From Escherichia coli (GTDB taxonomy: Bacteria; Pseudomonadota; Gammaproteobacteria; Enterobacterales; Enterobacteriaceae), in NCBI RefSeq assembly GCF_003334785.1, contig NZ_QOWV01000013.1: DNA of 64,000 bases; one strand, given 5' to 3'. Position 1 is the first letter of the stretch; the number at the start of each line of letters is the position of its first letter. The translations under genes and the position numbers were made by a program. This document shows, piece after piece, positions 6,359 to 6,967 of this stretch. The notes under the pieces are model-generated. The model saw nothing but the letters and a program-made list of their open reading frames with translations. It made no database searches and was not told the DNA's origin.

Positions 6359-6967
6359 ATGAAAAACAGGCTGCTGATCCTCAGCCTGCTGGTTTCTGTA
6401 CCTGCCTTTGCCTGGCAGCCACAAACCGGCGACATCATCTTTCAGATCTCTCGCTCATCGCAAAGTAAAGCGATCCAACTGGCGACCCATACCGATTATA
6501 GCCACACCGGTATGCTGGTGATACGCAACAAAAAGCCCTACGTTTTTGAAGCAGTCGGCCCGGTGAAATACACCCCGCTCAAGCAGTGGATCGCCCATGG
6601 TGAAAAGGGCAAATACGTTGTTCGCCGCGTTGAAGGCGGACTGAGTGTTGAACAACAGCAAAAACTGGCGCAAACGGCAAAACGTTATCTCGGTAAACCG
6701 TATGATTTCAGCTTCTCATGGAGCGACGATCGCCAGTACTGTTCGGAAGTGGTGTGGAAGGTTTACCAGAACGCGCTGGGAATGCGCGTGGGCGAGCAGC
6801 AGAAGTTGAAAGAGTTCGACCTGAGCAGCCCACAAGTTCAGGCAAAGCTCAAAGAACGTTACGGCAAGAATATTCCGCTTGAGGAAACGGTGGTCTCGCC
6901 ACAAGCCGTTTTCGATGCGCCACAACTCACCACGGTCGCCAAAGAATGGCCGCTGTTTTCGTGGTAA
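6359..6967 (+). CDS. yiiX: YiiX, putative secreted hydrolase (YaeF/YiiX permuted papain-like family), function unproven
   Basis: ORF track 202 aa with N-terminal signal peptide MKNRLLILSLLVSVPAFA. Confidence 0.85.
   Translation: MKNRLLILSLLVSVPAFAWQPQTGDIIFQISRSSQSKAIQLATHTDYSHTGMLVIRNKKPYVFEAVGPVKYTPLKQWIAHGEKGKYVVRRVEGGLSVEQQQKLAQTAKRYLGKPYDFSFSWSDDRQYCSEVVWKVYQNALGMRVGEQQKLKEFDLSSPQVQAKLKERYGKNIPLEETVVSPQAVFDAPQLTTVAKEWPLFSW

Follow-up and report, generated by a model that had tools for sequence, protein, structure and literature searches.

The yiiX gene of Escherichia coli, between metJ and rpmE, encodes a permuted papain-like enzyme that is predicted to be exported and may act on fatty-acyl substrates

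The yiiX locus

A stretch of 64,000 nucleotides of Escherichia coli DNA (RefSeq assembly GCF_003334785.1, contig NZ_QOWV01000013.1), referred to here as the window, was examined around an open reading frame which opens at the first start codon past a stop in the ORF listing. The features of the locus are as follows.

5645..5684, no strand assigned: tandem met-box array (MetJ operator) in the divergent metB/metJ promoter region, matching four tandem AGACGTCT boxes at 24/32 positions
5858..6175, + strand: metJ coding sequence, 105 aa (RefSeq annotation of identical DNA; translation), the probable source of yiiX transcription
6182..6341, + strand: metJ intrinsic terminator hairpin, split by an insert; outer stem 6182-6190/6333-6341, then a T-run
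6199..6331, no strand assigned: BIME-containing insert of 133 nt, with REP hairpins at about 6205-6229 and about 6272-6301; inverted repeats; polymorphic between E. coli strains
6359..6967, + strand: yiiX coding sequence, 202 codons plus stop (annotation, NCBIfam, Pfam and PDB matches)
6359..6412, + strand: putative signal peptide, residues 1-18, MKNRLLILSLLVSVPAFA (Sec/SPase I; predicted cut after Ala18)
6989..7014, no strand assigned: bidirectional intrinsic terminator for yiiX (+) and rpmE (-), AAAAAAGCGCCG-tg-CGGCGCTTTTTT
7028..7240, - strand: rpmE (L31), the convergent downstream neighbour of yiiX (ORF listing, RefSeq annotation)
7247-7299, - strand: L31 leader RF03157 (Rfam)

The open reading frame is E. 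coli yiiX (b3937; protein WP_000797353.1). The 1501 nt covering metJ-yiiX-rpmE are 100% identical to many E. coli chromosomes, on which RefSeq labels the same DNA 'yiiX: YiiX family permuted papain-like enzyme' with metJ and rpmE as its neighbours, as had been proposed from the sequence in the original prediction. The family named there, the permuted NlpC/P60 proteins of the YaeF/YiiX type, was also recovered by matches to the NCBIfam YiiX equivalog NF007458 (354.8 bits over residues 1-198, above the cutoff of 216), to Pfam Peptidase_C92, PF05708 (3.3e-49, residues 21-193), and to PDB entry 2if6 (5e-122). The last of these is YiiX from the O157:H7 strain, which is 98% identical to the protein encoded here and differs from it at four surface positions (T45S, I55M, S157N and Q159L); the AF2 model of YiiX (pLDDT 93.5) superposes on it at 0.5 A. 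Two E. coli paralogues, YebB (NF008547) and YaeF (NF008552), belong to the same permuted papain-like family, and YiiX matches the YebB model with 86 bits (E 1.8e-24), but its scores lie far under the equivalog cutoffs (227 and 279 bits) and YebB and YaeF are therefore distinct subfamilies.

The coding sequence was found in 5425 of 5426 complete E. coli genomes and dN/dS between its alleles is 0.05-0.10, a value indicating purifying selection; on the basis of this near-universal presence and constraint yiiX is a functional gene and not a chance open reading frame. The same dN/dS disfavours diversifying selection as an explanation for how strongly the yiiX alleles diverge. At least 596 species-representative genomes contain relatives, 2225 clusters (at 50% identity) match YiiX at E<=1e-3, and the best 80 family loci all come from diderm lineages. 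yiiX is thus an already known gene, and the present analysis leaves the known picture of it unaltered.

Transcription of yiiX

The RNA of 6182..6341 has a folding energy of -66.5 kcal/mol (z = -4.9), and in this fold three inner hairpins lie within the outer stem. The insert within it contains a BIME, having two inverted REP palindromes, lying outside genes and being repeated in the genome (megablast with a BIME-containing query gave a median of at least 39 places per genome); Rfam matched the REP-derived family ES036 at 6226-6267 (39.6 bits, gathering score 37.6), and the REP-derived naRNA4 at 6271-6322 below its threshold. A BIME upstream of yiiX had been predicted and is confirmed by these REP hairpins, Rfam matches and copies, as is a bidirectional terminator downstream, where a perfect palindrome with arms of 12+12 nt and a 2-nt gap lies between the convergent yiiX and rpmE and forms a hairpin in the minimum-free-energy fold. 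In E. coli E302 the BIME segment is replaced by 7 nt, and in this strain and other BIME-less Enterobacteriaceae the same outer stem makes a simple terminator in a spacer of 56-66 nt, so that the metJ-yiiX spacer of these relatives consists of the terminator plus 23-27 nt. In the window, the gap between the terminator T-run and the start codon of yiiX is 27 nt.

Upstream of yiiX there is a single MetJ-type site, the array at 5645-5684, to which, by our own coordinate conversion, the published ChIP-exo peak MetJ-27 (4128579) maps; the window contains just one further array, at 1679-1710. No met-box array was found at 5850-6360 (best score 9/16), and yiiX does not have the met box at a promoter of its own that would place it in the MetJ regulon. 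A consensus scan of the + strand between metJ and yiiX gave no sigma-70-like site, and a relaxed scan gave one weak site (8/12) inside metJ, both scans being crude enough that they also miss the known metJ promoters. No promoter belonging to yiiX itself is evident, though one may lie inside metJ or the BIME. In published transcriptome and ChIP-exo work yiiX is a member of the MetJ i-modulon, with a ChIP-exo peak assigned to a 'yiiX;metJ' unit, and is annotated by those authors as 'Methionine or folate related hydrolase' (PMC6892915, PMC11701608). From its place in this i-modulon, yiiX most likely rides on metJ transcripts, and co-transcription with metJ best explains the published co-regulation. 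Transcription of yiiX is probably weak, reaching the gene by read-through from the metJ promoters, which MetJ represses; such transcripts would cross the BIME-split metJ terminator and end at the terminator common to rpmE, and the terminator between metJ and yiiX argues for partial read-through at most. The suggestion that yiiX is probably monocistronic therefore finds no support, given the position of the BIME inside the metJ terminator loop, the 27 nt from terminator to ATG, the lack of a sigma-70-like site or met box in between and the MetJ i-modulon data.

Export of YiiX

The N-terminus of YiiX reads MKNRLLILSLLVSVPAFA|WQ, with positive charges at K2 and R4, a hydrophobic core of about 12 residues around L5-V14 (mean Kyte-Doolittle 2.54), and A16-F17-A18 before the predicted cut, with W19 after it. 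It thus follows the pattern typical of Sec/SPase I substrates, which combine a positively charged n-region, an h-region 7-15 residues long and small side chains at positions -3 and -1 but have no lipobox Cys; a lipobox is absent because there is no Cys in the N-terminus (none before residue 128). The crystallised 2if6 construct begins at residue 18, AF2 pLDDT falls within 65-77 across residues 1-20, and a hydrophobic N-terminus is present in 123 of 131 family sequences (130 representatives plus YiiX), 22 of which carry a lipobox. The clear signal peptide originally reported agrees with these sequence features, with the start of the 2if6 construct and with the hydrophobic N-termini across the family. 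Judged from its sequence, YiiX is most likely a Sec substrate that is cleaved behind Ala18 and then resides in the periplasm in soluble form, with a mass of about 21 kDa.

Fold and active site

YiiX has the NlpC/P60 alpha+beta core fold, with a permuted catalytic order in which His49 and Glu64 are N-terminal to Cys128, and with a fourth catalytic residue, the Tyr that positions the P1 carbonyl, supplied by Tyr115 on the role described in PMC3142127. Conservation of these residues was counted over 130 distant cluster representatives of <=50% identity, and their codons are as follows.

6503..6505, + strand: CAC, His49, general base; 126/130 representatives; catalytic (PMC3142127)
6548..6550, + strand: GAA, Glu64, third triad residue, which orients His49; 129/130 (PMC3142127)
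6701..6703, + strand: TAT, Tyr115, hydrogen-bonded to the fatty-acid head group in 2if6; 128/130 (PMC3142127)
6740..6742, + strand: TGT, Cys128, nucleophile and sole Cys of YiiX; 128/130 (PMC3142127)

Three of the four representatives lacking His49 are N-terminal truncations, and Cys128 sits in the motif Y127-C-S-E130, of which Y127 and E130 are invariant in the 130 representatives. The Cys-His pair, on which the family assignment had been made to depend, is thus kept. The Cys128/His49/Glu64 triad and the role of Tyr115 were named as catalytic in PMC3142127, where the triad geometry was found to be like that of active NlpC/P60 enzymes. YiiX is a circularly permuted NlpC/P60 papain-like cysteine enzyme, with His49 and Glu64 coming first, followed by Tyr115 and Cys128. 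Family positions that are hydrophobic in at least 90% of sequences lie at about residues 26-47 (including a helix at 36-43) and 131-185, which lends indirect support to a hydrophobic S1 pocket; the helix 36-43 and the post-Cys segment of about 142-185 are taken to be the regions that form it.

Likely chemistry and substrate of YiiX

Re-refinement of 2if6 in 2011 placed a fatty acid beside Cys128, where it was modelled as stearate and is hydrogen-bonded to Tyr115; the S1 tunnel that it occupies is narrow, hydrophobic and open at both ends and was judged by the authors to be unfit for a peptide substrate, and two Ca ions were also modelled (PMC3142127). The ligand was assigned from electron density alone in protein produced in a heterologous cytoplasm, and for these reasons it could be adventitious. 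A related structure is that of BcPPNE (B. cereus BCE_A0238, 3kw0), a YaeF/YiiX-like protein that is only about 20% identical to YiiX and is probably cytoplasmic, which has a lysine in a restrictive S1' site and a groove instead of the long tunnel of YiiX (PMC3142127). When YiiX was compared with the PDB by Foldseek for newer solved relatives of known function, only 2if6 and 3kw0 were found, and the closest folds outside the YiiX family (TseH, PLAAT4 and RID) are all lipid-acyl enzymes, not peptidoglycan peptidases. The earlier statement that the biochemical activity is not defined is in keeping with the literature, in which our full-text search found no enzymatic assay of YiiX. Its proposal to assay peptidoglycan fragments or lipids leaves the choice of substrate wide open and is incomplete, as PMC3142127 had already argued against a peptide.

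By analogy with characterised relatives, the most likely activity of YiiX is that of a thiol acyl-hydrolase or acyl-transferase in the periplasm, with an ester or amide of a long-chain fatty acid as its substrate. In the mechanism that we infer from the published structure and these relatives, a fatty-acyl chain of about C16-C18 would enter the S1 tunnel, and Cys128, which His49 and Glu64 activate, would attack the acyl carbonyl held by Tyr115, giving an S-acyl-enzyme thioester on Cys128 and releasing the head group. The thioester would then be resolved by water to give free fatty acid, or an acceptor nucleophile could serve instead, resulting in transfer; if YiiX is a hydrolase, the fatty acid in 2if6 would be bound product. 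Such chemistry would make the substrate a fatty-acyl ester or amide from the envelope or the environment, with (lyso)phospholipids, the N-acyl groups of lipoproteins and N-acyl amino acids among the candidates, and not a peptidoglycan peptide. Overall, we think it somewhat probable that YiiX is an exported permuted papain-like enzyme which cleaves fatty-acyl esters or amides and is expressed by read-through from metJ.

The relatives of YiiX include both hydrolases and transferases and either chemistry may apply to it. Phospholipases of the permuted NlpC/P60 type include the T6SS effectors TseH (6v98) and Tox-Act1, which fall in separate clades from YiiX in a published tree; these are toxins for rivals with immunity genes, whereas yiiX has a housekeeping role in the core genome, encodes a Sec signal and has nothing resembling an immunity gene beside it. 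LRAT and the PLAATs (HRASLS) are eukaryotic phospholipase A1/2-acyltransferases which, unlike YiiX, are membrane-anchored and cytosolic-facing and are without the YiiX-specific segment of residues 141-185, and a Pfam search of YiiX gave no match to the LRAT profile PF04970. YiiX could be mainly an acyltransferase, passing the acyl group from Cys128 not to water but to the amine or hydroxyl of a lipoprotein or lipid, and would then resemble LRAT, the PLAATs, RID/IcsB and the LnsA and Lnb lipoprotein N-acylation systems; we regard this as possible but rather unlikely. Characterised permuted NlpC/P60 transferases are many (LRAT, HRASLS/PLAAT, LnsA), YiiX is the top HHpred match of LnsA (PMC7387801), and the 2if6 tunnel, with its two open ends (PMC3142127), would also suit a transferase. 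However, the ligand in the crystal is a free fatty acid, a hydrolysis product, YiiX is predicted to be soluble, without a membrane anchor, and no lnsB-like partner recurs beside yiiX. Moreover, E. coli lipoproteins are already N-acylated by Lnt. In older annotations YiiX is called a 'predicted peptidoglycan peptidase' or 'putative peptidoglycan peptidase' (PMC6505713), a peptidase or amidase like the canonical NlpC/P60 enzymes MepS or YkfC, which would fit its predicted export and its superfamily, and the B. subtilis C92 member YycO is among candidate wall hydrolases, with its activity undetermined (PMC10653849). YiiX shares with MepS/Spr, YkfC and CwlO their superfamily, the papain-like core and the Cys/His/polar triad with Tyr, but its catalytic order is permuted rather than Cys before His, Pfam gave no match to PF00877 (NLPC_P60), it has no LysM, SH3b or other wall-binding domain, and no close structural match to peptidoglycan endopeptidases or wall-binding modules was found; together with the narrow, hydrophobic, fatty-acid-filled S1 (PMC3142127), this makes a peptidoglycan substrate improbable.

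A link with methionine would explain the co-regulation of yiiX with the MetJ regulon, if YiiX were a periplasmic amidase freeing Met, homoserine or homoserine lactone for uptake from N-acylated forms such as N-acyl-Met, acyl-homoserine lactones or lipopeptides. This would agree with the i-modulon and its hydrolase annotation, with the proposal by Xu et al. of a fatty-acyl-amino-acid amidase and the free amino acid held in S1' by the B. cereus homologue (PMC3142127), and with the metJ-yiiX gene order kept across Enterobacteriaceae. However, adjacency to metJ is missing in Budviciaceae, Morganellaceae, Hafnia, Serratia and all of the more distant lineages examined, no met box adjoins yiiX, and co-regulation is the passive outcome expected of terminator read-through, so we consider such a role doubtful at best. 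Beyond lineage-level synteny, a comparison of 83 loci by six-frame ORF calling and all-against-all clustering found no recurrent functional partner beside yiiX homologues, and the variable neighbourhood outside Enterobacteriaceae points to no substrate. AlkB (6 loci, 5 of one lineage), generic SDRs (recurrent neighbours) and PbpC (three closely related MAGs only, with PbpC 77-79% identical) were rejected as functional clues, and identification of a 1914-aa ORF beside MAG homologues as an alpha-2-macroglobulin was dropped as it had no NCBIfam match. PADLOC gave no match for a defence role of YiiX, and PHROGs gave one weak, uninformative match for a phage role. It is also very improbable that YiiX has no catalytic activity and only a vestigial triad, serving to bind fatty acids or lipids in the periplasm or being a metalloprotein: a lipid and two Ca ions were modelled in the crystal, the 2if6 deposit is titled 'metalloprotein' and activity was never demonstrated, but the four catalytic residues are near-invariant across the 130 clusters and the gene is under purifying selection, which is the pattern that a working site would show, and the triad geometry matches active NlpC/P60 enzymes (PMC3142127). 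A more speculative proposal, drawn from the predicted intact catalytic site, the fatty acid beside the nucleophile, the predicted export and mRNA that tracks the MetJ regulon, is that YiiX is a MetJ-coupled periplasmic lipo-amidase acting on N-acylated amino acids, acyl-homoserine lactones or the N-terminus of lipoproteins or lipopeptides. We hold this to be a long shot; if true, it would link the turnover of envelope or environmental lipid amides to scavenging of methionine or homoserine, or would yield diacyl lipoproteins, and either activity would be new for E. coli.

Fatty-acyl cleavage by an exported YiiX is thus the reading that we prefer, and with it the substrate question is narrowed to fatty-acyl esters or amides rather than peptidoglycan, and the operon reading is corrected in that yiiX is most likely carried on metJ transcripts through a BIME-split terminator. 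YiiX is among the remaining enzymes of the E. coli core genome that have a solved structure but no known substrate, and its family extends through thousands of diderm lineages, with relatives that are toxins, lipoprotein acylation enzymes and human lipid-remodelling enzymes. Its substrate, once found, would supply a missing piece of the metabolism of envelope lipids or lipoproteins.

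Identity and probable export of YiiX

The DNA around yiiX in the window is E. coli chromosome, with the gene order metL-metB (-), metJ (+), yiiX (+), rpmE (-), priA (+) and cytR, and the 1501 nt at 5800-7300 match many complete genomes, that of the K-12 derivative ER1709 among them, at 100% identity. The gene itself is:

6359..6967, + strand: yiiX ORF, 202 codons, beginning at the first start codon past an in-frame stop

RefSeq names identical DNA "yiiX: YiiX family permuted papain-like enzyme" (WP_000797353.1), and the YaeF/YiiX-family identity originally claimed is borne out by this annotation together with the NCBIfam YiiX equivalog NF007458 (354.8 bits, cutoff 216), Pfam Peptidase_C92 (PF05708, 3.3e-49, residues 21-193, the sole significant match in a Pfam scan) and PDB 2if6, the structure of YiiX of O157:H7 (residues 18-202), which has four substitutions relative to the window protein. 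NCBIfam models for the paralogues YebB and YaeF gave 86 and 15 bits, both far under their own cutoffs. Structure prediction had been proposed as a check, and an AlphaFold2 model from a 50-sequence alignment reached a pLDDT of 93.5 and superposed on 2if6 at 0.5 A. The gene, family and structure are already known, and the original prediction was accurate except in its operon inference and in overlooking published lipid evidence.

The N-terminus (MKNRLLILSLLVSVPAFA, with WQ after the predicted cut) has two basic residues followed by a hydrophobic core of 12 residues, with A-x-A ahead of the cut, in keeping with the signal peptide predicted from the sequence; as there is no cysteine ahead of residue 128, YiiX is not a lipoprotein. 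A hydrophobic N-terminal segment is present in 123 of 131 family sequences (YiiX and 130 representatives), 22 of the 123 having a lipobox. Because of these N-terminal features, the start of the 2if6 construct at residue 18, poor order of the AlphaFold2 model across residues 1-20, and the diderm lineages from which all of the best 80 genomic matches come, the predicted periplasmic location is well supported, and YiiX is probably exported.

Conservation and allelic variation

A survey of 5426 complete E. coli genomes recovered the yiiX coding sequence from 5425, with dN/dS at 0.05-0.10 between alleles. At least 596 species-representative genomes contain relatives and 2225 clusters at 50% identity match YiiX (E<=1e-3), so yiiX is no chance ORF. 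Some family proteins (P0129, P0153, P0178 and P0251) are 360-420 aa long, with N- or C-terminal regions additional to the C92 domain, and P0092, which has the further Pfam domains PF00814 and PF22521, is perhaps a gene fusion or the product of a wrong gene call.

Divergence between yiiX alleles is unusually high for an E. coli core gene, 2291 of the 5425 genomes being only 90-95% identical at the nucleotide level. Between the window and E. coli E302, dS was 0.33 for yiiX, 0.03 for metJ, 0.08 for metB, 0 for rpmE and 0.22 for priA, and yiiX dN/dS was 0.10 with replacements concentrated in residues 83-97 and the putative signal peptide. The allele divergence points to old alleles having recombined, not to positive selection. 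In E. coli 99_0849 (L086, 3754-6609) the place directly downstream of yiiX, taken by rpmE in the window, is occupied by an IS1 transposase and an RHS element, both frameshifted.

Transcription of yiiX

The features bearing on transcription are:

1679-1710: tandem met-box array, presumably upstream of metF
5645-5684: tandem met-box array of the metB/metJ divergent promoters
6182-6190 and 6333-6341: stem halves of the old metJ terminator
6199-6331: BIME-carrying segment, 133 nt, in place of 7 nt of the metJ terminator hairpin loop
6989-7014: bidirectional terminator between convergent yiiX and rpmE, perfect palindrome AAAAAAGCGCCG-tg-CGGCGCTTTTTT

The predicted BIME upstream of yiiX was recovered, as the 183-nt metJ-yiiX spacer contains two REP-type hairpins matching REP-derived Rfam families and a highly repeated genomic element; the downstream terminator, also predicted, is of textbook type. 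Directly upstream of rpmE lies an L31 ribosomal-protein leader (Rfam RF03157, 7247-7299, - strand, 60.1 bits, gathering score 33.2). The spacer of E. coli E302 and of other Enterobacteriaceae is only 56-66 nt long, consisting of a GC-rich hairpin between A- and T-runs (the metJ terminator) and then 23-27 nt to the yiiX ATG. The old stem halves still pair round the insert (predicted fold, z = -4.9). The stretch left from terminator to yiiX is thus too short to accommodate a promoter. The BIME is polymorphic among E. coli: E302 (L085, 2942-3000) has a plain 59-nt terminator spacer, and a 1501-nt query with the BIME was at least 80% covered in only 3225 of 5426 genomes.

Scans of metJ and the spacer, both standard and relaxed, turned up no credible sigma-70 site, and because they also miss the known metJ promoters an internal promoter could have escaped detection. 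Besides the two arrays listed, no tandem met-box array was found in the 64-kb window. In independent component analysis of E. coli transcriptomes yiiX belongs to a 17-gene MetJ i-modulon, and a MetJ ChIP-exo peak is attributed to a "yiiX;metJ" unit (PMC6892915; PMC11701608); we took K-12 expression data as valid here since ER1709 has the identical BIME-containing arrangement. The simplest reading is that yiiX would be expressed via read-through from the metJ promoters. Its earlier description as probably monocistronic is not supported: no credible promoter site or met box was seen near yiiX, the BIME lies inside the metJ terminator, and yiiX belongs to the MetJ i-modulon.

Genome context

The metJ-yiiX order is confined to Enterobacteriaceae (Escherichia, Citrobacter, Superficieibacter, Intestinirhabdus, Trabulsiella, Phytobacter and Kosakonia) and was absent in Budviciaceae, Morganellaceae, Hafnia, Serratia and all more distant lineages examined, so that the MetJ link seems to have arisen locally, by accident of gene order, and not from a conserved functional coupling. 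A methionine-linked lipo-amidase would be attractive in view of the i-modulon, but with the adjacency lineage-restricted we consider this improbable, and hold the same view of a MetJ-coupled periplasmic lipo-amidase or lipoprotein deacylase. ORF clustering of 83 loci found no neighbour recurring with yiiX across independent lineages, and the context therefore names no substrate.

Several individual neighbourhoods were seen. The DNA oxidative demethylase gene alkB (NF011930 above cutoff) adjoins a yiiX homologue at six loci (L023, L026, L029, L030, L051 and L056), five from one Steroidobacteraceae-like lineage and one from Providencia, probably by coincidence. In three closely related termite-gut MAGs (L044, 1-9077; L053; L066) a YiiX homologue with a lipobox lies between an ORF of about 1914 aa, which had no NCBIfam match, and pbpC (PBP1C, TIGR02073 at 819 bits), all on the same strand. 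In Pragia fontium (L002, 400-5742) yiiX runs divergently to a cluster whose Pfam domains are of phospholipid type (CDP-OH_P_transf, CTP_transf_1, Acyltransferase, a fusion of alpha/beta-hydrolase with methyltransferase, and a dual-specificity phosphatase); this arrangement, in a single lineage, may be due to chance.

Active site and probable chemistry

The alignment set YiiX against 130 full-length sequences, each representing a 50%-identity cluster and sharing 38-55% identity with YiiX.

Conservation of active-site residues among the 130 representatives
His49: 126/130 (three of the four exceptions are N-terminally truncated)
Glu64: 129/130
Tyr115: 128/130
Tyr127: 130/130, invariant
Cys128: 128/130
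Glu130: 130/130, invariant

His49, Glu64, Tyr115 and Cys128 are the catalytic residues named in the structural paper (PMC3142127). Lack of a conserved Cys-His pair had been set as grounds for refutation, and the pair is conserved. Cys128, the sole cysteine of YiiX, is without a disulfide partner.

The biochemical activity had been called undefined, and the full-text literature searched indeed held no YiiX assay. Re-refinement of 2if6 by Xu et al. placed a U-shaped fatty acid, modelled as stearate, within a narrow hydrophobic tunnel, its carboxylate adjoining Cys128 and hydrogen-bonded to Tyr115, and the site was deemed unfit for peptide (PMC3142127). Across the family, helix 36-43 and residues 142-185, which presumably form the pocket, contain positions that are at least 90% hydrophobic.

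Structural neighbours of YiiX
TseH, T6SS effector: 7.9
NDUEG7, Euglena respiratory-complex subunit: 7.7
PLAAT4, phospholipase A/acyltransferase: 7.2
RID, lysine fatty-acyltransferase domain: 5.8
PPPDE, deSUMOylase: 5.5
Canonical peptidoglycan NlpC/P60 enzymes: below 5, with merely 50-70 aligned residues

Phospholipase activity is now reported for TseH (PMC12994826). A peptidoglycan peptidase is contradicted by these neighbours, by the pocket and by the permuted order of the catalytic residues (His and Glu N-terminal to Cys), and is very doubtful; a non-catalytic lipid binder, which the near-invariant active site contradicts, is more doubtful still. That YiiX is a transferase and not a hydrolase has somewhat more to commend it, as many relatives are transferases, but it is unlikely given the free fatty acid in the crystal and the lack of a partner gene by yiiX.

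We favour, with some reserve, a thiol acyl-hydrolase of the periplasm, or perhaps a transferase, whose Cys128 would accept the long-chain fatty acyl part of an ester or amide, giving an S-acyl-Cys128 intermediate; the substrate would be a lipid, and our confidence in any one particular substrate is low. YiiX is a genuine orphan enzyme, with nothing in these findings to surprise a specialist.
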